DNA of 64,000 nt, from NCBI GenBank assembly GCA_003223135.1, contig QHXX01000038.1, positions 27,672-91,671 of the forward strand. Direction: 5' to 3'. The stretch is from Acidobacteriota bacterium (GTDB taxonomy: Bacteria > Acidobacteriota > Polarisedimenticolia > Gp22-AA2). A program made the position numbers and the translations under genes. Shown piece after piece: positions 42,981 to 56,345 of the stretch (its first letter is position 1; the number at the start of each line of letters is the position of its first letter). The notes beneath the pieces are model-generated. The model saw only the letters and a list, made by a program, of their open reading frames with translations. It made no database searches and was not told where the DNA came from.

Positions 42981-44111
42981 TCACCAGCGCTCGGCGATCG
43001 CTCTGACCAGAGCGCCGAGCCCGTCCAGGTCCTTTTCGTTAATCACTTCCACCGGCGAATGGGAATGGACCGTCGGCCAGGAGAGCGCCAGGTCGGGTGT
43101 CCCGAACTCGGGGAAGACCGATCCGTCGTTGCCACCGCGGGTCAGGCCGTATTGCACCGGTATTCCCGCCTGTCGCGCCAGGTTCAGGACGCGATCGACC
43201 AGAGCCGGATCGGTGATGTTGCTGCTGTCGATGGCACGCACCACGGGGCCTTTCCCCAGGATGGCGTGGGCGAAGGCGGGACGCTCCAGAGGACTGTCGG
43301 ACGACACGAATGTATCCACGGCGATGGCCAGGTCCGGCCGCAGTGTCTCCGCCATCGCCTGCGCCCCGTCGAGGCCGGTCTCCTCCTCCACGGAGAAGGC
43401 GAAAATGAGCTTGTGGCGCAGGGTCTTCGGGTCGATCCCGCGCAGCGCCACGAGGAGAGCGGTGCAGCCGGCGCGGTCGTCCACGGCCCGGCCCGAGCCG
43501 AAAGAGCCGTACAGCCGTTGGAAGGCCTTCGGAACGGTGACGGGATCGCCGGGGGCGATGCCGAGCGATTCGGCCACGGCTCGCGACGAGGCGCCCACGT
43601 CGACGCGCACAGCCTCCTTGCCGAAGGCCGCGGGCGTCTCCACGGCGGAGGGGTCGAGGTAATTCGGCCGTGGCGGAACGACGCCACCGACGTCCCCCTT
43701 CGCTGCGTGGACGAGAACCACTTGCCCTTCGTAGAGCGTCTCGAAGAACCCGCCGACGGCCTTGACGTCGAGCCCTCCGTCCTCCCGGATCGCCGTCACG
43801 AGGTAGCCTGTCTCGTCCATGTGTGCGATGAACAGGAGGGTCTTGGCAGCGCGCTCCGGCCCCACCGTGACCAGCAGGTTCCCCTTGGCGTCCACTGCGG
43901 GTCGGGCCCAGGCCGGCAGAAGCGAGCGGATTCGATCGCGCACACCCTGCTCACGCGTCGATACCCCGGGAGTGTTGATGAGAGCCTCGAGGATGCCGAA
44001 GCTGCCACCCTCCCGGCCCGGGCGCGCGGCCCGAATGTCTCCTGCGCCGGCCAGGACGGCCGCCGTGATCGACGCGAGCGATAGCAGAACGGTGCGCGCC
44101 CGACCGGTCAT
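42981..44111 (-). CDS. M42-family metallopeptidase (FrvX/glutamyl aminopeptidase-like), secreted
   Basis: Signal peptide, LLFIAHMDETGYLV, DDRAGCTALLVAL metal-ligand motifs of M42; ATG overlaps stop of upstream M42 paralogue (ATGA). Confidence 0.8.
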   Translation of the reverse strand: MTGRARTVLLSLASITAAVLAGAGDIRAARPGREGGSFGILEALINTPGVSTREQGVRDRIRSLLPAWARPAVDAKGNLLVTVGPERAAKTLLFIAHMDETGYLVTAIREDGGLDVKAVGGFFETLYEGQVVLVHAAKGDVGGVVPPRPNYLDPSAVETPAAFGKEAVRVDVGASSRAVAESLGIAPGDPVTVPKAFQRLYGSFGSGRAVDDRAGCTALLVALRGIDPKTLRHKLIFAFSVEEETGLDGAQAMAETLRPDLAIAVDTFVSSDSPLERPAFAHAILGKGPVVRAIDSSNITDPALVDRVLNLARQAGIPVQYGLTRGGNDGSVFPEFGTPDLALSWPTVHSHSPVEVINEKDLDGLGALVRAIAERW

Positions 44112-45228
44112 CGGTCTTCTTCCGCGATCGACTTGAGGAGCGTCGCAAGCGCCACGATGTCATGCGCATCGACGACTTCGGCCGGCGTACCGGTATACAG
44201 GATAGGGACTCCGATCGGCAAAACGCGCGTCTTGCCGACGAACGCGCTTTGATCCCCCGCGGTCCCGTAGGTCGCGTTCTGCAAGGGCAGCCGGGTTCGC
44301 GCCGCGCGCTCGGCGAGGCGGTTGTAGATCTCCTGCGAGAACCCTTCCGTCCCGCCCGGAACGGCGACAACCGGCCCTTTTCCAGGCGCCGTGCGCGCCC
44401 CGCCCGGGAGCGGCGCGTCGACCACCAGGACGTCATCGGCCTCGACACGGTTGGCGAGACGCCCAGCCCCACGTCCTCCCATGAGCTGCTGGGCTGAGAA
44501 GGCCACGGTCAGAGTGCCATGGATCTTGGCGGGCTCGAGCTCCTGCAAGAGCAGGAGGAGGGCCGCGCACCCCGCCCGGTCGTCCATGGCCGGGCCGGCC
44601 AGCTTGCCGCCGGCCAAATCCACGATGCGCCGGGCGATGACGACGGGGTCGAGGAGCACGACACCCGCCGCCTCGACGTCCGCGGCGCTCCGTGCGCCAA
44701 TGTCGACGAAAAGGTCTTCGTCGACGACCGGCCGGTTGAGTGGGGCGGCATTGCCGCGCCACAGGTGGGTCGAGTAGACGACCGAGACGGCCGGGATCGT
44801 GCCGCGCCGTCCCTGGATCAAAAGCGGCTGGCCCATGTGGAACTGATCGAACAGCGGCGAGAGGGAAAGCCGCGTCAGGCGCTGCAGCTTCAGATACCCC
44901 TGATCGGTGACCCCGGTCACGACGTACCCGGGCTCATCCATGTGGGCGAGGAGGAGAAGTCCCGGCTTCCCCGAGCCGACGCTCACCGTCAGGTTGCCGA
45001 GATTGTCCTCCTGGAACGAGGCCCAGGAGGGCGCCGCCCGGCGAATCGCGGCGCGCACCGGTCCCTCACGGCCAGCCACGCCCCCGACTGACGCCAGGGC
45101 GCGCACGAGTGCCCTGGCCTCCTCGAGTTGGTCGGCCCCGGACCGCGTCCATACCGACAGGGACGTCGCAAGTACTATGAAGACGAAAGCCGATGGCCGG
45201 CGACGTTCCGGACACCCCAGACGCGCCA
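44108..45228 (-). CDS. M42-family metallopeptidase, paralogue 2, secreted
   Basis: LLLLAHMDEPGYVV, MDDRAGCAALLLLLQ; GTG start (VARLGCPERRRPSAFVFIVLATSLSVWTRSGA signal peptide) with GAGGGGG RBS preferred over upstream ATGs. Confidence 0.75.
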
Positions 45229-45362
45229 CGAGTTCCCCCTCCCCGGCGGCCCCCGTGGACGGCCGCGGGTCGATGGAAGGCCGCGGGATCATATCCCTGC
45301 GGGCGCGACATGGTACCCTAGTTGACCATCCCGTCCGCGGGAAAGGAGTCCGAAGGAAATTC

Positions 45363-47699
45363 ATGGCCTCGATTCGGAAGGAGCGGGGCGCATGGTGGCG
45401 GTTCGACCCGGTGCGCCTTCTTCTCAGGGCGGGTCTCGCGGTCGCCCTGGTCCTGGCCGGACTCCTGACTCTGGCCAGCATCGACGCCAATTGGCGATTC
45501 GCCCACCTGGAGGCCGCGGCCCCGGCCCGGGTCTTCTCCGCCCCGTTCGTCCTCTCCGACAGGGTGGCGGTGGTCCGCGAAGATCTTTTCGAGAGGCTGG
45601 CGCGCCTCGGCTACCGCAAGATCGACGGACACCCCAGCATGCCCGGCGAATACTCTGTCCGTTTCCGGGCGCTCGAAATCTTCTTGAACGCTTTCAACTA
45701 CCCCACCGGAAGGGTCGAGGCCATGCCCGTGCGCGTGAAGATTGGATTCGGGCGCATCGGTCACATCGAGAATCTCTCGAGCGGGGAGGATCTCGAGCGC
45801 GCTCTCATCGAGCCCGAGCCGCTGGGTACCCTATCCGGAAGCGTGCGGGAGGAGCGGCTCGCTGTGTCGATTGACGACCTGCCGAAGCACCTGCTCGACG
45901 CGGTCGTCGCGGTCGAGGACCGCCGTTTCTACCGGCACTCCGGCATCGACCCCCGCGCTCTCGCGCGCGCTCTTTTCGCCAACGTCAAAAGCGGCGAGGT
46001 CGTGCAGGGCGGCAGCACCATCACCCAGCAGCTCGCCAAGAATCTGTATCCGAGCGGCGAGAGAACACTGACCCGCAAGCTGTGGGAGACGCTGGCGGCG
46101 CTGAGCCTCGAGGCTCTGCACAGCAAGAGCGAGATCCTGGAGCGCTATCTGAATCAGATCTACATGGCGCAGCGCGGGCCGACTTCGATCATCGGGGTGG
46201 GCGCCGCCTCGGGACACTACTTCGGCAAGGACGCGCGCTACCTGGACCTGCCGGAAGCGGCGCTCGTCGCCGGGCTTATCCAGTCACCCGGGCGGTACCA
46301 CCCGTACCGGCACCCGCGGGAGGCGCTTGAGCGCCGCAACCTGGTTCTGCGGTTGATGCGCGACGAGGGGTTCATCACCGAGCCGCAGTATGACGAGGCG
46401 CGGGAGGCTCCGCTCAGTCTGCGCCCGGAGCCGGCGGCCGACGCCAGACAGGCCCCCTACTTCATCGATTTTGTCGCGCAACAACTTCAGGATCAGGGGC
46501 TGCGCGACCCCGCCTCGCGCCTCGGGATTCGGGTGTTCACCACTCTGGATCCGCTGCTGCAGGCGCGCGCCGACAAGGCGGTCGACGCGAGCCTGAAGCA
46601 ATACGAGCGCGCCTACACGCAGCTCCGTCCTCTGCCCGGCGGCGAGATTCAGGGGGCGTTCGTCGCCCTCAACCCCTCCGACGGCTCGATCCTGGCGATG
46701 GTCGGAGGCCGGAATTACGGACGCAGCCAGTTCAACCGGATTACCCAGGCCCACCGGCAGCCGGGATCCGCGTTCAAGCCGTTCGTCTACCTGGCGGGCT
46801 TCCAGAAGGCGCAGGACGAGCGCACGCCCCTGTTCACCGCCGCGACGGTCCTGGACGACTCGCCCCTGGAGATGGAGGTTTCCGGCCATCCCTGGGCGCC
46901 GCAGAACTTCGACCAGGAGTACAGGGGCCCGGTCAGCGCGCGCCAGGCGCTGGCGCTTTCCCTCAACGTGCCCACCATCCGGGCGGCCGAGACGATCGGG
47001 CTCAGGGACATCGTGCGAATGGCGCGGCGCTGCGGCATCGAGAGCCCTCTGCAGCCCGTCCCCTCGATCGCGCTCGGCACGTTCGAGGTGGTCCCGCTCG
47101 AGATGGTCTCGGCCTTCACGACCATCGCCACCCTCGGGACGCGCGCATGGCCGCGGGCGATCATCGCGGTGGTGGACGACAGCGGGAAGGTCATGGAAGT
47201 CCCCACCCACCCGCCGCAGGAGGCGGCAACGCCGCAGGCGTCCTACCTGACCCTCGACCTGATGCGCGATGTGGTCCGCTACGGCACCGGCGCCGCCATC
47301 TGGTCCTACGGCGTCGAAGGCGAGTTCGCGGGGAAGACGGGGACCACCGACGAGGGACGCGACGCCTGGTTCGTCGGCTTCACGCCTGACTTTCTCGGAC
47401 TGGCCTGGGTCGGATTCGACAACAACCGTCCGCTGCGCCTGGGCGGCTCCGCCCTGGCTCTGCCGATCTGGGCCCAGGTCGCGCGCGGCGCCGGCATCGA
47501 CCGGGGCCGGCGCTGGGAAATGCCCAGCGGAATCGTGGAAGAGGAGGTCGACTCGACCACCGGCCTGCGCGCCACCGCCCGCTGCCCCGACTCCACGCCC
47601 GAAATCTTCATCGAAGGCACGGAGCCGCCGGAGTGCGACCAGCACCAGGGCGGCTTCGAGTCCTGGGCGACGCGGATCATGAACTGGTTCCGCCACTGA
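45363..47699 (+). CDS. mrcA: class A penicillin-binding protein 1A (transglycosylase/transpeptidase)
   Basis: GT51 motifs EDRRFYRHSGID, GGSTITQQLAKN; transpeptidase SAFKP (SxxK), SLN (SxN), KTGT; AAGGA RBS; internal ATG of ORF 44907..47699. Confidence 0.9.
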   Translation: MASIRKERGAWWRFDPVRLLLRAGLAVALVLAGLLTLASIDANWRFAHLEAAAPARVFSAPFVLSDRVAVVREDLFERLARLGYRKIDGHPSMPGEYSVRFRALEIFLNAFNYPTGRVEAMPVRVKIGFGRIGHIENLSSGEDLERALIEPEPLGTLSGSVREERLAVSIDDLPKHLLDAVVAVEDRRFYRHSGIDPRALARALFANVKSGEVVQGGSTITQQLAKNLYPSGERTLTRKLWETLAALSLEALHSKSEILERYLNQIYMAQRGPTSIIGVGAASGHYFGKDARYLDLPEAALVAGLIQSPGRYHPYRHPREALERRNLVLRLMRDEGFITEPQYDEAREAPLSLRPEPAADARQAPYFIDFVAQQLQDQGLRDPASRLGIRVFTTLDPLLQARADKAVDASLKQYERAYTQLRPLPGGEIQGAFVALNPSDGSILAMVGGRNYGRSQFNRITQAHRQPGSAFKPFVYLAGFQKAQDERTPLFTAATVLDDSPLEMEVSGHPWAPQNFDQEYRGPVSARQALALSLNVPTIRAAETIGLRDIVRMARRCGIESPLQPVPSIALGTFEVVPLEMVSAFTTIATLGTRAWPRAIIAVVDDSGKVMEVPTHPPQEAATPQASYLTLDLMRDVVRYGTGAAIWSYGVEGEFAGKTGTTDEGRDAWFVGFTPDFLGLAWVGFDNNRPLRLGGSALALPIWAQVARGAGIDRGRRWEMPSGIVEEEVDSTTGLRATARCPDSTPEIFIEGTEPPECDQHQGGFESWATRIMNWFRH

Positions 47700-47747: not shown

Positions 47748-50033
47748 TTAGCGCCTTCCTGCTTCGTCGGAGATCTCGACCACAACCTTGCCGGACCCCG
47801 TGTTGCCGGCCGCGTCGGTCGAGCGCACAACGATGCTGTGTTCGCCCGGAGCCGGGCGCGGCAATGTCAGGTCGTACCTCTCGAGCGGCGAATCGTTCAG
47901 TCCGTCCGTGGGCTGGACCGACTCCCAGTCGCCCGCGTCGATGGCGTAGGCCGTGTCGCGGATGATGCTGAACGAATCGGAGGCCACGAACGCGACCTTG
48001 ACTCCGGATGGCTGCACCTGGGCCTTGATCCCCTCGATGCGGGGCGGCGTGTTGTCGACATCGAAGGGTTCCGAGATCTTCTCGGCCTGAAGCGCGCGGC
48101 CGGCAGGATTGGAGGGTGCGTCGCTCGCGACGACCCGGAACACGTAGGTCCCGTCCGGCATGGCAGTGCTGTCCCAGGTGACGAAGTCCTCGTCGATCCT
48201 GCGGCGCATCTGCTTCCACGCTGTCTCATCGGCCGCCCGGTAGTAGACGTCGTACACCAGGTCGTCGTCGTTCGGATCGCTGGCCTGCCAGGTGACGCTC
48301 CGTGCCCCGGCCTCGAAGCCGCGCCGCGACTGCGGGCGCGGGCGTCTGCGCCCACCGCTCTCGACGTCGGTCCCGGAGGGGCCGGCCGGCTTGGCCTCCT
48401 GCGTTCCGGGGGATGGCGAGCCCGGGATCTTCTGGAACGACACTCCCGGTGCCTGCACCTCGACCCGGCGGATCTCGGGCGGCAGGTTGGCCTGCAGGTA
48501 GGTGATCGCCACCTCGCGCAGAGACGGCGAGCGCTGCGGGTCCTCTGTTTTCATTTCGGCGCGCCACTGCAGGAAACGCGAGGCCGGGCAGTTCAGGAGC
48601 GCCCCGTCGGAGTTGAACGGCGCGCTCCTCCAGTCCGACCACGTCCGATCGGGCTCCTCGGTGTTGCCGCACCTCACGTTCAGGACGATCGAGGTCCCCT
48701 TCGGCGCGTCGACGCGCCAGTGGGCGCGCCCCCAGGTGGCGAACGACCGGGCGTCGAGCACGCGCGACTCGAACGCTCCCGACGGCGCGAAGCCTGTGCG
48801 CAGGAGCGACAGGCTTCCGAAGTTGCTGCCTGCGACCGCAATGTCCCCCTGTTTCGGCGGCGATGCCGAGGTCTCCCGCGTCTTCGATTCGCCGGCGTCC
48901 GCGCCCAACCGCAGAAGGGCCGTCACCTGCCCCGATGACAGGCGCGCCAGCTCGTGCACTTCGCCTTCGGCATCGAGGGAGTAGATCCGCCCCTGCGAGC
49001 TCGATCCCATGAGCAGATCCCCCGAGGACGACACGGCAAGGCTGAGAATCGCCTCCTGGCTGCCCGACCACATCTCGCGCGCGTACCCTTCAGGGGAGAT
49101 CGCCAGGACCTTTCCCTCCATCCCGATCGGGACTCGCTGCTCGGGAACGGGCTGTTGCTCCTGCGGTGGCGTCGGGGTCGGCTGGGGCGCGCCCCCGTCC
49201 GTGGGGGCAGACGGCTGGGCGGAGGCGGGCGGGGCCGGCGGAAGCGGCGCGGGCCGAGCCGCGCGCCCCGACTCACCGGCGACCGCCGCGTAGATCGTCC
49301 CGTCCCGCGCCAGCGCCAGTGAGACGACCTCGCCGAGCGGCGCATCGTACAGGACGAACCCTTCCCCTTTGGGCGAAATGCGGAAGACAAGGCCGTGGCC
49401 GTCGGTGCCCGCAATCAGGCTCCCTTTCGAGTCGAGGACGAGCGAGCGTATGTGCGTTTCGGCCGAATCGAAGAAGATGCGCCCGTGCCCCTCCGGGTCG
49501 ACCCTGAGGATTCGCCCCTCGATCCCGGTGGCCGCGTACAGCGCCCCGTCGCGGTCGAGCACGAGCGCCCAGATGTACTTCTCGCCGCTGTCGTAGGTCC
49601 AGACGGCTTTTCCGTTGGGCGCGATCTTGTAAATCTTGCCGCCCGGCGAAGACCCGGCGAAGACATTGCCCGACCGGTCGAGTGCCAGCGCGTGGACCTC
49701 GGGTTCGCCCGCCTTGAAGAAAGTCTCGGCACCCGAGCCGGTGATGCGGTAGACAGCGCCGTCGTTCCCGCCCGAGGTGTACAGCTTCCCGCCCGCGTCC
49801 TGGGCGATGGCCCAGAGGTACGGTTGTTTGGCTTCGTACACCAGGTCGAGACGCGGCGACAGCCGGAGGAGACCGTCGGCCAGAAGGGAGACGCCCTTCA
49901 GCTCCCCCTTGGCGAAATCATCCTTCTCCCTCTGGCGCCACGTCTGCGAGATGACGGCCCGGGACGAAGTGGCCTGGAACAGGAGGACGGCGAGGGCGGA
50001 CAGGACGGCGGCGATCCCGGCGGCGCGCTTCAT
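47748..50033 (-). CDS. secreted beta-propeller repeat protein (Reg_prop/PQQ-like blades) with C-terminal Ig/FN3-like domains
   Basis: Signal peptide MKRAAGIAAVLSALAVLLF; at least 6 repeats of the type DxxGxLY..T..G.VYRI; Pro-rich linker; C-terminal beta-sandwich domains; ATG overlaps S55 gene stop (ATGA). Confidence 0.6.
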   Translation of the reverse strand: MKRAAGIAAVLSALAVLLFQATSSRAVISQTWRQREKDDFAKGELKGVSLLADGLLRLSPRLDLVYEAKQPYLWAIAQDAGGKLYTSGGNDGAVYRITGSGAETFFKAGEPEVHALALDRSGNVFAGSSPGGKIYKIAPNGKAVWTYDSGEKYIWALVLDRDGALYAATGIEGRILRVDPEGHGRIFFDSAETHIRSLVLDSKGSLIAGTDGHGLVFRISPKGEGFVLYDAPLGEVVSLALARDGTIYAAVAGESGRAARPAPLPPAPPASAQPSAPTDGGAPQPTPTPPQEQQPVPEQRVPIGMEGKVLAISPEGYAREMWSGSQEAILSLAVSSSGDLLMGSSSQGRIYSLDAEGEVHELARLSSGQVTALLRLGADAGESKTRETSASPPKQGDIAVAGSNFGSLSLLRTGFAPSGAFESRVLDARSFATWGRAHWRVDAPKGTSIVLNVRCGNTEEPDRTWSDWRSAPFNSDGALLNCPASRFLQWRAEMKTEDPQRSPSLREVAITYLQANLPPEIRRVEVQAPGVSFQKIPGSPSPGTQEAKPAGPSGTDVESGGRRRPRPQSRRGFEAGARSVTWQASDPNDDDLVYDVYYRAADETAWKQMRRRIDEDFVTWDSTAMPDGTYVFRVVASDAPSNPAGRALQAEKISEPFDVDNTPPRIEGIKAQVQPSGVKVAFVASDSFSIIRDTAYAIDAGDWESVQPTDGLNDSPLERYDLTLPRPAPGEHSIVVRSTDAAGNTGSGKVVVEISDEAGRR

Positions 50034-51952
50034 TTCACCCTTATGGAGATGCGGCGGCCGCCCACGACCACGACGTCCAGATCCTTCGGGAGTTCCAGGA
50101 TTGGCGCTTCACCCATCAGGGTCGTGTCGGCGCTCAGCCGCGGATTGTTGAACACGGTGAAGATCGACAGGGGGAGATCCGGCAGAACCTCGCTGCGGAC
50201 GATCGCCGTCGGCGCCCGCCGCGTCATTCTCAGGTAGAGCGTACGGCTGCGTCTCTGGCGGCTCGCCAGGCGCACGAGGTCGCCGAGGCCTCCGGCCTGG
50301 GCCACCTGACGCTCGATCGTCCGGCGATCCAGACCGTCGATGGCCGGGCCGCTGCCGACGACGATCTCGGCGTCGCCGGGTGTGGTGTCCTCCGGAATCG
50401 TCACGACCCAGGATTCCTCCCACTCGCGACCACGGTACAGGTCGAGCACCGCGGTGACAGTGACGCTTTCGCCCGGCCGGACCTCGGTGCGCGAGGCTCG
50501 GAGCGACGAAACGACCGCGACTTGCGAGCCCTGCAGCATCTCGACACTGACGTCCACGCCGGCGATCGTCGGCTCCTCGAACCGATTGTTGTAGAGGAGA
50601 TTGAACAGGCCCCCCGCGTCATTCGCGAGCGCCACGTGGACCGGCTGCGCCGGATTGGTCCCCGAGTAGAGGTCCTCCACCGTGACCGGCGGGAACCCCC
50701 GGACATCGATGCGGTAGCGCAGCGCGAGTGTCGCGGAGGCGTCGAAGTCCGTGGTCCGCACCAGACTGTTGGCGGTCGTGACCGACAGCAGGACGGGGGA
50801 CCAGGCGCGGTTTCTCAGAATGTTGTAGTGGAAGTCGCGCCGGCCGGCGCCCGACGTCACGCGCACCGTGACCGGAATGGTCGGCGCCTCGCGACCCACC
50901 TCACCGACGATCGCCGTGAGCCCGTCCTGAAAGATGGTCCCGACAGGTGGCGTTGCGTTGGCGAGCTTGAAGGACGCGGCGGTCGACGCGAAGGTCAGGA
51001 GAACCTGCGCCTGCGTCATCGGCATTTCCATGGCGCCGGCACCGAGCAGGGGGTGGCCGAAGGCGAACACCCGGTTCCCATCGATATGAGTGAGAGTGCC
51101 GATACCGACGAAGTTCAGGTCACCGGTGGCGAGGGCCGCCCCGATCGCGGTGCCTGGCGTGAGCGGGAGCGGGCCGGATGGGGACACGACCCCTCCCCCC
51201 GCCGTGGGCTCCAGACCGCACGACTCGAAGATCGGAGCGTAATAGCGCAGGACGCCGGGGTCGCACCCCGAGCAGACGAGCGGTATGCCGATCGGCTGCA
51301 GTCCCGCCGGCGGTCCGCCGGCCGCCGCCATGGACGGTCCCTCCGCTGCCGCGCGCGGGGCGCCGCCGTCCGTTCCGGAGATCGGTCCCTCCGCGCCGGC
51401 GCGCGAAGCCAGGAAGTGACCGAGCAGATCGGGCGCCCGCGTCACGCCCTCGGCGGCCCGCGCGGGCGCCGCGAGCTTGATCATGTCGGCGATCGGGGTG
51501 ATGCCGGCGATCGCCTCCTTGGCGAACGTTCCAAGCCGATACGACACGGCGCCGACGAGCTTCCCGTCGACGTAGACCGGGCTGCCGCTCATGCCCGAGA
51601 CGACGCCGGTGTACTCGACCTTGTCCCCGCGCAGGCGGGCGATGATGAGATCCTGCTGCGGACCGATGGCGCTCTTCAGGACTCCCACGATCTCGACCTT
51701 GAACTCCTCCAGATTGTTTCCTTCGAACACCGTGCGGGCGGTCCCCTGCATCCCGGGCCGGAGTTCCTCGATCGGCATGAAGGCGACCGGTGTGCCGGAG
51801 GGCGCCGCATCCCCCGTTGCCGCAAGCGCCGGCGCCAGCGCGCCGAGAAGCGCGAAGCCCACCGCCGTTATAGCCACGAGACTCCAGGGGCGCGGACGGC
51901 CGTCGCCGCAGGTCCCGCTCGGGACCGGGGTCGCCGCCCCGGGACGGCTCAT
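50030..51952 (-). CDS. peptidase S55 (SpoIVB-like serine peptidase) with long C-terminal extension
   Basis: N-terminal TM/signal (WSLVAITAVGFALLGALAPALAA), catalytic Ser motif VVSGMSGSPVYVDGKLVGAVSY (compare SpoIVB GMSGSPI); internal ATG of ORF 50030..52132 with AAGGAAAAGGAAGAGGA RBS; ATG overlaps the upstream gene's TGA. Confidence 0.7.
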   Translation of the reverse strand: MSRPGAATPVPSGTCGDGRPRPWSLVAITAVGFALLGALAPALAATGDAAPSGTPVAFMPIEELRPGMQGTARTVFEGNNLEEFKVEIVGVLKSAIGPQQDLIIARLRGDKVEYTGVVSGMSGSPVYVDGKLVGAVSYRLGTFAKEAIAGITPIADMIKLAAPARAAEGVTRAPDLLGHFLASRAGAEGPISGTDGGAPRAAAEGPSMAAAGGPPAGLQPIGIPLVCSGCDPGVLRYYAPIFESCGLEPTAGGGVVSPSGPLPLTPGTAIGAALATGDLNFVGIGTLTHIDGNRVFAFGHPLLGAGAMEMPMTQAQVLLTFASTAASFKLANATPPVGTIFQDGLTAIVGEVGREAPTIPVTVRVTSGAGRRDFHYNILRNRAWSPVLLSVTTANSLVRTTDFDASATLALRYRIDVRGFPPVTVEDLYSGTNPAQPVHVALANDAGGLFNLLYNNRFEEPTIAGVDVSVEMLQGSQVAVVSSLRASRTEVRPGESVTVTAVLDLYRGREWEESWVVTIPEDTTPGDAEIVVGSGPAIDGLDRRTIERQVAQAGGLGDLVRLASRQRRSRTLYLRMTRRAPTAIVRSEVLPDLPLSIFTVFNNPRLSADTTLMGEAPILELPKDLDVVVVGGRRISIRVK

Positions 51953-52483
51953 TCCTCTTCCTTTTCCTTGCTGTTCTTGCCTTTGAGTGCGGCCTTCACT
52001 GACTCGACGATGTAATTCTGCATCGACGGCTTCTGGTGCTTGACCGATTCGTACACCAGGCAGGGAAGCTTGAGGGAGATCTGGACGCCATCCTCGTCCA
52101 GTGATTCCAGCCAGCGACCAAACTTGTCCCATGAGTCCCAGGTCAGCTTCCTGATCGCGCCCTTGCTGTACAGCTCGATGAGGCTGACGTCATCCTTCAG
52201 CTTGAACAGGACGGAGCGCTCATCGTAGTCCTTGAAGTCGCTGTAGGCGAAGAATTTTACTTCGCCGGCGATCTGGTCCTTGCCCTTGATGCTGATCTCG
52301 GGCGTCTTGTTGCAGCGCATCAGAATGTAGTCATCCTTCCCCTTGAAGTGGAAGGCGACGATCGGATCGGTGGTGCGGTCGTTGTCACTGGGCGTCTTCA
52401 AGGCGCGATAGACACGACGTGCGATCTGTTCGTTCGTGGTATATATCCCGCCCTCTCTGGCTACTCGTTTCATCGTCGGACCA
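51949..52483 (-). CDS. Lys/Asp/Glu-rich cytoplasmic hypothetical protein (about 177 aa), compositionally atypical, first gene of the S55-peptidase cassette
   Basis: MKRVAREGGIYTTNEQIARRVYRAL...KGKNSKEKEEE; no signal peptide; local GC about 55% versus about 70% flanks but G/C-ending codons retained; weak resemblance to tubby/LOR-type beta-barrel repeats (speculative). Confidence 0.5.
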
Positions 52484-52492
52484 ATATAGCAC

Positions 52493-52501
52493 ATTACAAC
52501 T
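52493..52501 (-). promoter_or_regulatory. extended -10 element TGcTATATT (minus strand) about 9 nt upstream of the Lys-rich gene ATG, predicting a leaderless or near-leaderless transcript
   Basis: Revcomp of 52493-52501 is TGCTATATT; the start codon is 9 nt downstream on the minus strand; embedded in the AT-richest stretch of the window. Confidence 0.4.
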
Positions 52502-52573
52502 TTGTAAATGGGCCGCTCCGCATCGACCTGTCGTCTCTTCTTTGACCTTGAAGGTTGCGTCCCTTCGCGGTAC

Positions 52574-53320
52574 ATGGATGGTCCAATGCAAAATCGAGGA
52601 ACGACCCTCTGGACGGGGCTTCTATGCGGCTTCCTCGCCGCGGGAGGCGCCGCCTCGATCCTGTCCGCGCAGACTCCGACTGCACCCACGGCAGGCGAGC
52701 CCCGCGTCAATTCCCCGGCCCTCGTCCGTGCCCTGGCCAGCATGCGACCGGACTATATGCGCTACATTTTCTCGGTCCGGCCGCTCGCACCGGGTGTTGG
52801 CCGGCGCCTCTACATGGCTCTGGTGCGACCGGGGGCGACCGACCCGGGCGGTCGCGGCAGCGCACCGTACGCCGGCCGGGGCGCCCGGAACGACATCGTG
52901 TACGACGAGGCCGCGGTCTCCTCGGGCCACAGCGTGGCCTGGAGCCGCCTGCTTCTGGACCACGAGTATTTCCACGCCCGTCACATGGCCGGCGCCACGC
53001 TTCTACCGGTGGCGCGCGGCGACTCACTGGAGGTGGAAAGGCACTACAACGAAGCGGCTGCCTGGGGGTTCAACGTGGCCGAGGCGCGCGCCGGGCAGTA
53101 CACGGGATTGCGCGAGGATGAGTTCCGAGAGGCTCTCGATCGACTGGGAGAGCACTACGCGGCCTTGCGGACGCTGCTCAAGGACGCCGACCCGAAGCGC
53201 TGGAGCCGGCTCTCGGAGCTGTTGAGCCGACCCGACCGGCTCATCGAGACCGCCGACGGACCTTCTGCAGCAGATCGTCCACGTCCTTCTGGTTTGGTTC
53301 GATCGTCAACGATTCGTTGA
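52574..53320 (+). CDS. secreted hypothetical protein
   Basis: Signal peptide MQNRGTTLWTGLLCGFLAAGGAASILSAQ (ATG at 52574 or 52586); His-containing motif LLLDHEYFHARHMAG might indicate a metal site; 3' 80 nt overlaps the convergent AP-family gene (true stop may be earlier). Confidence 0.4.
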   Translation: MDGPMQNRGTTLWTGLLCGFLAAGGAASILSAQTPTAPTAGEPRVNSPALVRALASMRPDYMRYIFSVRPLAPGVGRRLYMALVRPGATDPGGRGSAPYAGRGARNDIVYDEAAVSSGHSVAWSRLLLDHEYFHARHMAGATLLPVARGDSLEVERHYNEAAAWGFNVAEARAGQYTGLREDEFREALDRLGEHYAALRTLLKDADPKRWSRLSELLSRPDRLIETADGPSAADRPRPSGLVRSSTIR

Positions 53321-56195
53321 GGAATTGGACCGCCTTCTCGTACTGGTGCTCCTGGAGGTAGGACAGGGCCAGGGCATTGAACAACGTCGTCGTTCGTACC
53401 CCTTTGTCGCGCGCCGTCTCCAGCGCTCGGATGGCCTCGCGCGATCGGCCCATCCGTCCTTCGGCCGCGCCCAGGTTCACCCATGACTCGACGTTGTCGG
53501 GATCCTTCGCCACCGCGCGGCTCAGGATGTCCACGGCATCCTGCAGCCGTCCGTTACGCCCGTACAGGGCGCCGAGATTCGCCATCGTCGGCGCGTAGTC
53601 GGGATCGAGATCGAGCGCCCGCTTGAAGGTCTTCTCCGCCTGCGGGACATCCCGCTTCCACTCGTAGATCAAGCCCAGCCAGTTCAGGTGGACCAGCGAT
53701 TTATCGTCGAGCTCGAGTCCTTTGCGCACGATAGGCTCGAGTGTCAGGATGCGAGGCGTGTTCTTGTACAGCGTGTGCAGCTCCGCGAGCGGGTCCGAAA
53801 GGGCTGGGTCCATCTTCAAGGCCTCCAGGAGCTCGGTCTCGGCGTCCGCCATTTTCCCGTCCTTCAGAAGCAACGAGCCGAGCGCAGCCCGGATCTCCGG
53901 TACATCGGGGTGCTCGGCTCGCAGCCGCTCGAAGTAGGGAATGCCCTCGCGCGCCCTTCCAGCGTCACGGTAGATGCGGCCGAGCTTTATGTAGACGCTC
54001 TTGTCCCGGTCGGGGTCCGTCTCGATGACCGACCGCCCCACCCGGATGGCGCGGTCGTAGTCCCTCTGCGCTTCGGAGAGTTCAATCTGAAGCTGGAGCG
54101 CCGAGACGTAACCGGGCTGCTCTCTCAGGGCCTGGTCCAGGGCAGCCTGGGCCCGCGTGTAGTCCTTGGTCTTCATGAAGAGGGCCGCCTCGTTGAGATG
54201 GGCGCTGACGAGCGCCTGCGCCGGCGCATCGCCGCCCGCCTCCGCGCCGCCCGTTTCGCCTCCCTTGCCGGGCGCCGGGATATCGGCGCCCCCCCCGATA
54301 TATCCCAGTCTCTTTAGATTCTCGACCATCTCCTGGTCCACGCTGCTGGGCTCGACGATGGTCCTGTTGTCCTCCAGCCGCCGTCCGATGTCCTCATAGG
54401 AAGGAACGCTGTTCACGGCGAAGCGCTTGAGGAACCCATCGTCGATCGCCTCCTTGATGACACGGCCCGGCATGTCCCCGGCGATCGGCAGGCCGGAGAG
54501 GTAGAGGACCGTCGGAGCGACGTCGAGGAGGCTCGTCGTGTCGAGGTGTCCAGGCCTGATGCCCGGTCCGGCGATGATCAGGATGCCATAGCGCCGGTGC
54601 CAGAGGCCCGGCTTTCCCTCGATGTACGGCGGGTCGTCCTTGGGTCGGCTGCCGCCGTTCTGGAACCCGTGATCGGAGAGAACGACCACGACGGTGTCAG
54701 GTGACAACTTCGAGAGAATCTCGCCCAGGAGTCGATCCTGGTAACGGTAGTACGTTGTGACCACGTCCCTGTATTTCGAGTATTCCGCCGCCGTGACCAT
54801 GTCCATCTTCGGTGGCATGTAGTGCGCGAAGCGGTGACAGACCTCGTCGATCCCCTGGTAATAAATGGAAAACAGGTCCGGCTGTCCTCGTCCCAGGATG
54901 TCGAGGGCGATCGCCTGATACGATTTTTGACTGGCCAGGATCTTCGTCAGGTGGTTGACCGGCGCGCGGTAGGCGTTCTTCGGATCCTCTTCGACCTGCC
55001 GGCGCAACGATGCGAATTCAGCAGGCGTGACGTCCGCGAAGCGGCGAATCTCGCCGAGGCCGATCGAAGTGTCGTTCGTCAGCTTCGGGCGAATCTCTTG
55101 GAAGTAGCTCTCGGGGTAGGTCACGGCGGTACGCTCGGGTTCGCTGGATACGAATCCGAACAGGCTATACGCCGCGCGGTCCGAGACCATGAAGCCCTGG
55201 ACCGGCTCGGAGGGCCACGTCGCCCACCAGGCGATGAACGCGGACGATTTTCCCGCGTCCGTGAACATGTTCCACAGGGCCTTCACCTTGCGCCACTGGC
55301 TCGACACCGGCACGACCCGGCCGGTCTTCGCGTCCTTCGCCAGAAAGTCAATGATGCCGTGCTGCTCCGGGGGTTTTCCGGTGGCGACGCTCGTCCACAA
55401 GAGGGGCGACAGCCAGGGCATCATCGTCTTCATGTTGCCCCAGGCGCCCCGGGCCTTCAGGCGCGCCAGATTCGGGAGCTGCCCCCGCGCCATCATCGGG
55501 TCGATGATTTCCCAGTCGGCGCCGTCGAGTCCGAGGATGGCGACCTTGAGCTTCGTGTCGGCCATCCGCTCGCGCAGGGCTCGCCCGGAGATCGCCGCTA
55601 CGGTGTCCCCCGCTCCCCGGACCCGGTGGAGACTCAGGACCACCGAGGTGAACCCCTGCTCCTCCAGGCGGCCCTTCAGCTTCGCCTCGACCTCCGATGT
55701 CCCCTGCAGAAGGACAACCGACTCGGCCGAAGCGCCGCCGCCCCACTCGGCGAGGGTTGTGGATGCGGCGGTCTCCAGCGCGCCCTCGAGTGGTCGTGAA
55801 GAGCCCGTCCGAGCGAGAAACCCGGCGAGGGCGGCGGCATCCATTTGCGCCTCGACCTCGTACGGGATCTCCAGATCGATCCCCTCGCGGGTGCGCACCT
55901 GGACCGATGTCGAGACCCGAAACGGCCCCTCCGGGATCCGCAGGACCCGTTGCACGAAGGGCAGGATGAAATGACGGCCCGCTCCCAGCGGCGCGAGGTC
56001 GCGGAGGCCGGCGGTGCGCCGGAACGCCCGCTCCCCCTCGTCCACGCGCACGACCGAGAACCGCGCTAGCCCGAGGGCGGTGATGATGGAGAGCGCGGCC
56101 AGGACCAGGCGCCATCCGTGCCCGCGTTTGCCGGGGTCACCGGGCGTACGGCGGACCGCGTCGCGCCCCTCTCTCGTGCCGGATCCGGAGCTCAT
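53241..56195 (-). CDS. membrane-anchored SPFH-like domain + alkaline-phosphatase-superfamily (type I phosphodiesterase/nucleotide pyrophosphatase) + C-terminal TPR-repeat protein
   Basis: TM WRLVLAALSIITALGLA; SPFH/band-7-like segment (FSVVRVDEGERAF...FILPFVQRV...); AP-family core (LGLDGADWEIID, LSDHGF); at least 8 TPR repeats in the C-terminal 400 aa. Start ATG at 56195 preferred; an internal start at MADTKLKV (separate PDE) cannot be excluded. Confidence 0.65.
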   Translation of the reverse strand: MSSGSGTREGRDAVRRTPGDPGKRGHGWRLVLAALSIITALGLARFSVVRVDEGERAFRRTAGLRDLAPLGAGRHFILPFVQRVLRIPEGPFRVSTSVQVRTREGIDLEIPYEVEAQMDAAALAGFLARTGSSRPLEGALETAASTTLAEWGGGASAESVVLLQGTSEVEAKLKGRLEEQGFTSVVLSLHRVRGAGDTVAAISGRALRERMADTKLKVAILGLDGADWEIIDPMMARGQLPNLARLKARGAWGNMKTMMPWLSPLLWTSVATGKPPEQHGIIDFLAKDAKTGRVVPVSSQWRKVKALWNMFTDAGKSSAFIAWWATWPSEPVQGFMVSDRAAYSLFGFVSSEPERTAVTYPESYFQEIRPKLTNDTSIGLGEIRRFADVTPAEFASLRRQVEEDPKNAYRAPVNHLTKILASQKSYQAIALDILGRGQPDLFSIYYQGIDEVCHRFAHYMPPKMDMVTAAEYSKYRDVVTTYYRYQDRLLGEILSKLSPDTVVVVLSDHGFQNGGSRPKDDPPYIEGKPGLWHRRYGILIIAGPGIRPGHLDTTSLLDVAPTVLYLSGLPIAGDMPGRVIKEAIDDGFLKRFAVNSVPSYEDIGRRLEDNRTIVEPSSVDQEMVENLKRLGYIGGGADIPAPGKGGETGGAEAGGDAPAQALVSAHLNEAALFMKTKDYTRAQAALDQALREQPGYVSALQLQIELSEAQRDYDRAIRVGRSVIETDPDRDKSVYIKLGRIYRDAGRAREGIPYFERLRAEHPDVPEIRAALGSLLLKDGKMADAETELLEALKMDPALSDPLAELHTLYKNTPRILTLEPIVRKGLELDDKSLVHLNWLGLIYEWKRDVPQAEKTFKRALDLDPDYAPTMANLGALYGRNGRLQDAVDILSRAVAKDPDNVESWVNLGAAEGRMGRSREAIRALETARDKGVRTTTLFNALALSYLQEHQYEKAVQFLNESLTIEPNQKDVDDLLQKVRRRSR

Positions 56196-56345
56196 CGTGA
56201 TCTCCACGCGTGGCGCGGCAAGTGGCCACCAGGCAGGATGTTTCGAGTATAGCACCCGCTTCATCGGGCTCCCGTCGCCTGGACGTCGCCGGGTCAGGTC
56301 CGGCAATGCGCCTCCCAAGCCTTACTGAGCGATTTCCAAAGTGAA

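Follow-up and report, generated by a model that had tools for sequence, protein, structure and literature searches.

Background

Few enzyme scaffolds have been studied as much as the chymotrypsin fold, and we know of no family with this fold in which the catalytic residues follow an order other than His-Asp-Ser. In SpoIVB of Bacillus subtilis (MEROPS family S55; structure 9lnf), the catalytic residue His236 precedes Ser378, the presumed Asp363 lies approximately 24 Å from His236, and a non-canonical triad has been proposed (PMC12502668). Comparative genomics has found S55 peptidases to be widespread in acidobacteria (PMC8841776). Here we describe an S55-like gene from an Acidobacteriota bacterium, located in a 64-kb window (the whole stretch of DNA analysed, from contig QHXX01000038.1) with a G+C content of around 68%. 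On the minus strand of this window, three consecutive open reading frames (ORFs) run head to tail in the order small gene, S55-like gene and propeller gene, and the products of all three stand as 'hypothetical protein' in public records. Near-identical proteins have been recorded from soil metagenome-assembled genomes named 'Acidobacteria bacterium 13_1_20CM_2_68_14', and related ones from 'Candidatus Polarisedimenticolia'.

A number of described systems bear comparison with this locus. The S55-like protein shares with SpoIVB the GMSGxP serine and the catalytic histidine, Ser122 aligning with Ser378 and His300 with His236, but the barrel that carries the serine comes before the one that carries the histidine, there is no PDZ domain, and there are approximately 280 additional residues at the C-terminus. 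The host also differs, being a non-sporulating member of the Acidobacteriota, and the SpoIVFA/BofA/SpoIVFB context of SpoIVB is missing among the conserved neighbours. Likewise, one barrel of approximately 100 residues aligns sequentially with the clan PA proteases HtrA/DegS/MucD and Rv3671c (MarP), from which the S55-like protein differs in lacking a PDZ domain and in its permuted order; no significant sequence similarity to these proteases was found. The propeller protein recalls the Reg_prop sensors (3v9f and 4a2l) and PknD (1rwi), the blades of which match at the profile level with E values of 1e-5 to 1e-13, but it is a free protein, predicted to be exported, without a transmembrane segment, kinase, receiver or detectable Y_Y_Y domain. 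As a pair, the two proteins may be likened to Prc-NlpI of Escherichia coli and CtpA-LbcA of Pseudomonas, in which S41 C-terminal processing peptidases have TPR lipoprotein partners. The likeness lies in an exported serine protease with a substrate-selecting, repeat-domain partner, a partnership deduced from gene linkage only in the present case, where an S55-like protease and a propeller/Ig protein take the place of the S41 peptidase and the TPR lipoprotein.

Acidobacteriota rank with the most abundant bacteria of soils, and the majority of their conserved envelope proteins have not been characterised. On balance, the evidence presented below makes it probable that the S55-like protein is an exported endopeptidase with a circularly permuted catalytic domain, and that the exported propeller protein is its partner in a function of the cell envelope. 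Whether the two further constitute a near-universal envelope system of the Acidobacteriota, with the protease representing an undescribed, permuted branch of clan PA/S55 that is thousands of members strong, is a broader proposition that we would put at about even chances.

Family assignment and predicted export of the S55-like protein

A preliminary description of the locus had identified the product of the middle gene as a membrane-anchored S55 peptidase, by analogy with SpoIVB as a signalling protease. The family assignment holds, as the Pfam model Peptidase_S55 (PF05580) matches with 43.1 bits against a cut-off of 25. However, the match extends over residues 71-138, corresponding to positions 124-192 of the 210 in the profile and therefore to the serine half only, and the native protein gave no contiguous whole-domain match to this model with the histidine part ahead of the serine part. 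The signalling analogy fares less well. The score of 34.2 bits with the SpoIVB equivalog model TIGR02860, for which the cut-off is 305.25, indicates that this is not SpoIVB proper; no PDZ family match was found at E <= 0.1, whereas B. subtilis SpoIVB, used as a control, readily matches PDZ-containing chains; and the catalytic order is reversed. No partners in regulated intramembrane proteolysis were seen in the neighbourhood, and no SpoIVFA/BofA/SpoIVFB-like, site-2 protease or anti-sigma genes occur among the neighbours conserved across loci. In public records, homologues are named either 'hypothetical protein' or 'SpoIVB peptidase S55 domain-containing protein'. A defence or phage origin was dropped after PADLOC and PHROGs gave no meaningful result with the three proteins.

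Instead of an anchor, the window protein and 25 diverse homologues have N-termini that resemble cleavable Sec signal peptides, beginning with charged residues and running through a hydrophobic core to an A-x-A-like end; shortly after this region, the conserved motif (F/I)MPLxE(V/I)(K/R)PG opens the first barrel. As signal-peptide-like N-termini are found on both the S55-like and the propeller proteins across the family, both are predicted to be exported.

Evidence for a probable circular permutation of the catalytic domain

Conservation was assessed in an alignment of 52 sequences (28-75% identity) and in 256 full-length members of the family. The motif GMSGSP (residues 120-125), G299-H300, D278 and D343 are invariant in the former. 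Among the latter, Ser122 and His300 are each found in all 256, Asp343 in 255 and Asp278 in 248, while G120-P125 is unchanged in 256/256, a single M121I excepted; a putative catalytic triad of the kind that the preliminary description expected is thus present as an invariant Ser/His/Asp set. These residues follow the order Ser122, His300, Asp343, with 43 residues from histidine to aspartate, compared to 45 in chymotrypsin. Judged by sequence, this order is a cyclic permutation of the His, Asp, Ser of the chymotrypsin fold.

Such a permutation can be reversed in silico. When residues 260-360 of the window protein were joined to residues 50-165 and scanned with the Pfam S55 model, a single match to profile positions 14-192 was obtained, and in four of five distant members treated in the same way the match ran from positions 8-14 to approximately 192. 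Five controls (three shuffled, one reversed and one in native order) did not extend in this manner, four remaining at 124-192 and one at 88-192. A profile of the re-ordered family, made from the 256 sequences, was also compared with B. subtilis SpoIVB; the sequence used was verified against the deposited 9lnf chain and is identical to it over residues 101-426, differing only at the two alanines of the deposited GMAGAP motif. The profile matched residues 216-396 as one domain with 57.5 bits, with AFGH placed on ALGH (His236), GMSGSP on GMSGAP (Ser378) and the histidine barrel on SpoIVB 216-301. None of 200 decoys, in which only SpoIVB 200-305 was shuffled, reached this score (mean 47.1, standard deviation 1.2), and the profile in native order gave two separate matches to SpoIVB in swapped order.

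An AlphaFold2 model of the S55-like protein, built on the alignment, had a mean predicted local distance difference test (pLDDT) value of 87 and a predicted template modelling (pTM) score of 0.85. It comprises a helix at residues 23-44 followed by a low-confidence linker, a barrel at 57-161 made up of three strands, Ser122, three further strands and a terminal helix, a disordered linker at around 162-215, a small alpha/beta piece and then, at residues 265-355, three strands, His300, two strands, Asp343 and one strand. The strand patterns of these two barrels are those of the C-terminal and N-terminal barrels of chymotrypsin, respectively. Both the sequence comparisons and the predicted structure therefore support the view that the protease domain has been circularly permuted in nature.

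In the profile alignment, Asp343 falls on an asparagine of SpoIVB, within the motif IGDINRN. The aspartate after the histidine that is invariant in this family thus differs from SpoIVB, and the permuted family may keep a canonical aspartate that SpoIVB lacks. If the permutation is real, it would explain why domain databases detect half a domain, and a large natural family with swapped barrels would be of use in studying the evolution of the fold and in the classification of proteases.

Conservation of the protease-propeller gene pair

When clustered at 50% identity, representatives of the S55-like family number 6641 at E <= 1e-3 and 2111 at E <= 1e-30, nearly all of them approximately 600 amino acids in length and aligning end to end. 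A scan of one genome per species found a relative in at least 596 genomes. The best 80 of these nearly all belong to the Acidobacteriota, including Terriglobia, Bryobacterales, Vicinamibacterales, Blastocatellia/Pyrinomonadaceae and Polarisedimenticolia, along with one member of the Latescibacterota and one of the 'Binatia'. The loci of these 80 genomes and two metagenome loci, together forming a set of 82, were searched with the three proteins of the window.

In 53 of the 82 loci, the propeller gene is the next gene after the S55-like gene and has the same orientation. It is found within 4 kb downstream in nine further loci, giving a total of 62 of the 75 that could be assessed, the presence of the propeller being impossible to assess in the other seven. 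In several of the nine the pair is interrupted by another gene, for example one for an alcohol dehydrogenase. Locus L002, counted among them owing to an artefact of the cut-off on high-scoring segment pairs, has a directly adjacent pair when the called genes are considered. These loci come from Terriglobia, Bryobacterales, Vicinamibacterales, Blastocatellia, Polarisedimenticolia and a single Latescibacterota genome, at S55 identities of 31-75%; genomes of the Acidobacterium and Terriglobia type (for instance L033 and L078) are among those with homologues. The junction between the two genes takes the form of a 4 nt or 1 nt overlap, or a gap of no more than 30 nt, in 45 of 64 loci; of these 64 related loci, 10 have the 4 nt overlap and 33 others a gap of 0-30 nt, an estimate that leans towards short gaps because the start codon nearest to the stop was chosen.

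All-against-all clustering of the ORFs in the 82 loci revealed no other gene travelling with the pair across lineages. Those neighbours that do recur are lineage-specific, for instance, in Vicinamibacterales, a downstream pair of genes for an extracytoplasmic function (ECF) sigma factor and its anti-sigma factor and, in some Acidobacteriaceae, an inserted gene for a Zn-dependent alcohol dehydrogenase. The conserved unit is hence a two-gene operon of the S55-like and propeller genes, found across the Acidobacteriota. Of the three-gene unit previously envisaged, it is this pair that co-occurs in other lineages; the trio does not do so outside its own.

The commonest third neighbour is a divergent gene for a VWA-like protein (von Willebrand factor A type; approximately 410 amino acids, judged by eye) located between 20 and 220 nt upstream of the S55-like gene; it was seen in about 20 loci of Terriglobales type (L005-L023 and others), and is likewise specific to its lineage.

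The propeller protein

The propeller protein consists of a signal peptide (residues 1-26), a propeller (around 30-410) interrupted by a Pro/Ala-rich insert (around 255-300) that is variable in the alignment consensus, a conserved middle domain (around 415-515) and two Ig/FN3-like domains (around 575-755). An invariant Ala26 precedes the conserved mature N-terminus SQTWRQR. The Reg_prop-like character attributed to the blades is borne out by a match of the whole protein to Reg_prop (PF07494) with 30.1 bits against 20.4, and several other propeller families give neighbouring scores. A profile of the family matches both designed and natural propellers of the PknD/PQQ type with E values from 1e-55 to 1e-12; among these are the PknD sensor, a propeller of the PQQ type and the designed propellers Cake and Pizza, and weaker matches were obtained to 3v9f and 4a2l, both from hybrid two-component sensors. 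By contrast, the Ig/FN3-like domains previously assigned to the C-terminus give FN3, Big_13 and OmpL47-type signals below the Pfam thresholds. The middle domain has no Pfam match, and Pfam likewise detected no Y_Y_Y, histidine kinase or receiver domain in the protein, which has no transmembrane segment and ends after the Ig-like domains.

The small lysine-rich protein

The first gene of the run encodes a protein that is indeed rich in lysine, as had been remarked, with 22 such residues out of 174 (12.6%), along with many aspartates and glutamates, and a predicted isoelectric point of 8.7. It has no recognisable family or fold, and no hydrophobic segment in its sequence. The G+C content of the gene is 55%, compared to 69% in its neighbours and the genome, which can be attributed to the amino acid composition of the product: G+C at second codon positions is 0.34, and at third positions is still 0.79. 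Mean column identity is 75% in an alignment of 32 homologues, and identity ranges from 68 to 100% across all the matches seen. At locus L001 the small protein is 71% identical to that of the window and the S55-like protein 43%, such that the small protein evolves far more slowly than its neighbours. To judge from these comparisons, purifying selection on it is unusually strong for an orphan without detectable fold relatives.

The small gene adjoins the S55-like gene only in loci of its own lineage (4/82), and none of the 78 S55 loci from other lineages contains it. When the small protein was itself used for the search, the S55-like gene was directly downstream in 59 of 64 assessable metagenome loci and approximately 1.3 kb away in two (L132 and L138), with no S55-like gene within 0.7-1.6 kb in the remaining three. 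In L083, two genes on the opposite strand split the small gene from the S55-propeller pair, which nevertheless retains its 4 nt overlap. The small protein is consequently a lineage-specific (Polarisedimenticolia-like) upstream neighbour, outside the conserved module.

Gene starts, junctions and coordinates

The coordinates of the locus are given in Table 1. Both of the exact ATGA overlaps reported in the preliminary description are present, and the lengths it gave for the second and third proteins are as stated. Its end coordinate of 52483 proved to be out of frame with the small gene, for which in-frame starts give 174 amino acids (ATG 52473) or 181 (ATG 52494) rather than 177; the alignment of 32 homologues shows that the protein begins with MKR..., corresponding to ATG 52473, which most of them use. 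The annotated N-terminal extensions of some homologues ('CYS...', 'LWYI...') resemble translated promoter DNA. A reading of 700 amino acids for the S55-like protein, starting at 52132 as in PYT36460.1, was rejected: the extension overlaps the small gene by approximately 180 nt, and the closest homologues listed (72-99% identity) are approximately 575-645 amino acids long, favouring 640.

The obligate co-translation previously drawn from the two overlaps is overstated, given that relatives show the same gene order with short gaps in their place and that L083 has its two opposite-strand genes between the small and the S55-like genes. Such overlaps are also ordinary in this genome, a scan for A/GTGA junctions having found approximately 12 more between long ORFs in the window. 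The strong ribosome binding site reported inside the small gene corresponds to a purine-rich tract, AAGGAAAAGGAAGAGGA, which is present directly 5' of ATG 51952 with its AGGA approximately 6 nt from the start codon. A role of this AGGA as a Shine-Dalgarno site is plausible; the tract also codes for the conserved K/E-rich tail of the small protein.

Consensus promoter and terminator scans of the region found nothing above the expectation from shuffled sequence. The candidate promoter of the small gene listed in Table 1 was missed by the consensus scan because its 14 nt spacer is outside the window of 16-18 nt. Its -10-like hexamer ends 9 nt before ATG 52473, and the motif is kept in L002 and L003, which suggests that the small gene has a promoter of the extended -10 kind and an mRNA with little or no leader.

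Table 1. Features of the small gene, S55-like gene and propeller gene, with positions numbered from the first nucleotide of the window
Feature	Position	Strand	Description	Public record
Candidate promoter of small gene	52483..52508	-	TTTACA 52508-52503, 14 nt, extended -10 TGcTATATT 52491-52483	
Small gene	51949..52473	-	174 aa, cytoplasmic, Lys/Asp/Glu-rich, very conserved orphan	OLE65870.1
ATGA overlap, small-gene stop and S55-like start	51949..51952	-	Read from sequence	
S55-like gene	50030..51952	-	640 aa, predicted exported, putative permuted catalytic domain	OLE65871.1 / PYT36460.1, deposited as 'hypothetical protein'
Putative signal peptide of S55-like protein	51818..51952	-	Around residues 1-45, hydrophobic helix 23-44, predicted cleavage ALA|AT	
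Ser-bearing beta-barrel	51470..51784	-	Residues 57-161, GMSGSP with Ser122; aligns to 212-298 of SpoIVB 9lnf chain; equivalent of SpoIVB / PA-clan C-terminal barrel	
Ser122 codon	51587-51589	-		
His/Asp-bearing beta-barrel	50888..51160	-	Residues 265-355; equivalent of SpoIVB N-terminal barrel	
Asp278 codon	51119-51121	-	Conserved	
His300 codon	51053-51055	-	Putative catalytic residue	
Asp343 codon	50924-50926	-	Putative catalytic residue	
C-terminal region of S55-like protein	50033..50881	-	Residues 358-640; confidently modelled beta-rich domains, no family match	
ATGA overlap, S55-like stop and propeller start	50030..50033	-	Read from sequence	
Propeller gene	47748..50033	-	761 aa, predicted exported	OLE65872.1 / PYT36459.1

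Proposed function and alternative explanations

In the arrangement that we consider most probable, the S55-like protein would be an exported serine endopeptidase of approximately 600 amino acids, a permuted form of the SpoIVB (S55)/PA-clan double barrel in which a signal peptide is followed by the serine barrel, a variable and partly disordered linker, the His/Asp barrel and approximately 280 beta-rich residues. The exported propeller protein, of approximately 750 amino acids, would contribute a propeller of the PknD/PQQ/Reg_prop type, the middle domain and the two Ig/FN3-like domains. The two would work jointly outside the cytoplasm (periplasm or cell envelope), with the propeller protein serving as partner to the protease by recruiting or gating substrates, or by positioning the enzyme. 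We infer catalytic activity, physical association of the two proteins and the envelope function. Tight linkage across the phylum with frequent overlap of start and stop codons suggests stoichiometric co-production, and the role of partner is favoured because propellers with Ig domains are typical binding modules. In the lineage of the window, the small gene would be translationally coupled ahead of the pair, probably sharing its promoter, as a lineage-specific addition.

Several observations weigh against this arrangement. With respect to the permutation, a pairwise Smith-Waterman comparison of the histidine region with SpoIVB put GIGT...GH on His236 but was not significant (p = 0.18), hhalign of the same region against the single SpoIVB sequence gave E values of 0.03-0.25, and a profile of the mid-region by itself scored 10.6 bits, a value reached by one of 200 decoys, such that the signal from the histidine barrel, taken by itself, is weak, and it was the profile comparison with its decoys that brought it out. 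The protein may alternatively form a domain-swapped dimer, with the two barrels of each catalytic unit supplied by different chains. As regards the partnership, the propeller gene is absent despite there being room for it in 13 of the 75 assessable loci, and because of these the association may not be obligatory. No fused S55-propeller protein was found among the top matches to the family. Finally, the adaptor role of the propeller protein, although favoured, is an analogy with other proteases and not a result.

The main rival to a partner role is that the propeller protein is the substrate of the protease, which would mature it after export by cutting the Pro/Ala insert or freeing the Ig-like domains. 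SpoIVB, like many enzymes of the PA clan, is a protease with a specific processing function (PMC12502668), and this alternative fits the tight operon linkage and the exposed insert of low complexity inside the propeller region. It nevertheless appears unlikely, as no conserved cleavage motif was identified, as the insert is variable, and as the loci just mentioned have the protease but lack a nearby propeller gene. Still less credit can be given to inherited synteny of two genes with unrelated functions, or to a non-catalytic scaffold in place of an enzyme. Either would fit a family known from its sequences alone, in which approximately 17% of assessable loci lack the propeller neighbour, but adjacency persists between classes at 31-40% identity and in a second phylum while the other neighbours change, and a pseudo-enzyme is unlikely because serine, histidine and aspartate are invariant in 255-256 of 256 members. 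We regard as similarly improbable the three-component, obligately co-translated module spanning the membrane that was first put forward, in which a cytoplasmic partner, an anchored SpoIVB-like protease and a ligand-binding propeller would act in concert. The overlaps at both junctions, the stability of the trio in its own lineage (59/64 assessable loci), the strong constraint on the small protein (75% mean column identity) and the resemblance of the propeller, at the profile level, to those of PknD and the hybrid two-component sensors are all in keeping with it. However, the small gene is missing from the 78 S55 loci of other lineages and stands apart in L083, L132 and L138; the protease has a signal-peptide-like N-terminus, no PDZ domain and a TIGR02860 score of 34 where 305 is required; no gene for a site-2 protease, a SpoIVFA/BofA-like protein or an anti-sigma factor is conserved alongside; and it is not evident how a cytoplasmic protein would touch two that are exported. 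The propeller taken singly may still have a sensing role.

Neither the proposed permutation of the catalytic domain nor the pairing of protease and propeller across the phylum appears to have been described. As the preliminary description had suggested for the module, the architecture of the S55-like family, its permutation and its partner were not found in the literature searched, coverage of which was incomplete, making a prior description possible. The comparisons correct the analogy with SpoIVB signalling and show the third gene to be a lineage-specific orphan. The phylum-wide pair of exported protease and propeller is, in turn, a testable candidate for a role in the processing or quality control of envelope proteins.

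Flanking genes

Divergent from the small gene is an ORF of approximately 244 codons (52586-53320, plus strand), the product of which has a signal-peptide-like N-terminus, an HEYFH (HExxH-type) motif and no Pfam match, and may be a small secreted metallopeptidase not previously characterised; in L002, L083 and L084 the same position is taken by a gene of comparable size. Its end is overlapped by approximately 80 nt, as it is in L002, by the 3' end of a convergent gene (53241-56318, minus strand) encoding 1025 amino acids, in which SPFH/Band 7 and type I phosphodiesterase/nucleotide pyrophosphatase domains are combined with a long TPR array. Synteny of this larger gene with the small gene holds throughout the lineage, and the two remain side by side even in L083, where the S55-propeller pair is displaced.

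On the other side of the locus, a gene for a class A penicillin-binding protein with UB2H, transglycosylase and transpeptidase domains (45393-47699, plus strand) converges on the propeller gene and lies 48 nt from its end. It is also a neighbour in L083 and is found a few kb away in L002; the adjacency is probably lineage synteny, and is the sole hint of an envelope-related function in the neighbourhood. Beyond it are two ORFs in tandem (42981-45490, minus strand) that share an ATGA overlap at 44111-44108, the one at 42981-44111 being an M42 aminopeptidase by its Pfam match and the one at 44108-45490 an apparent paralogue, judged by eye.

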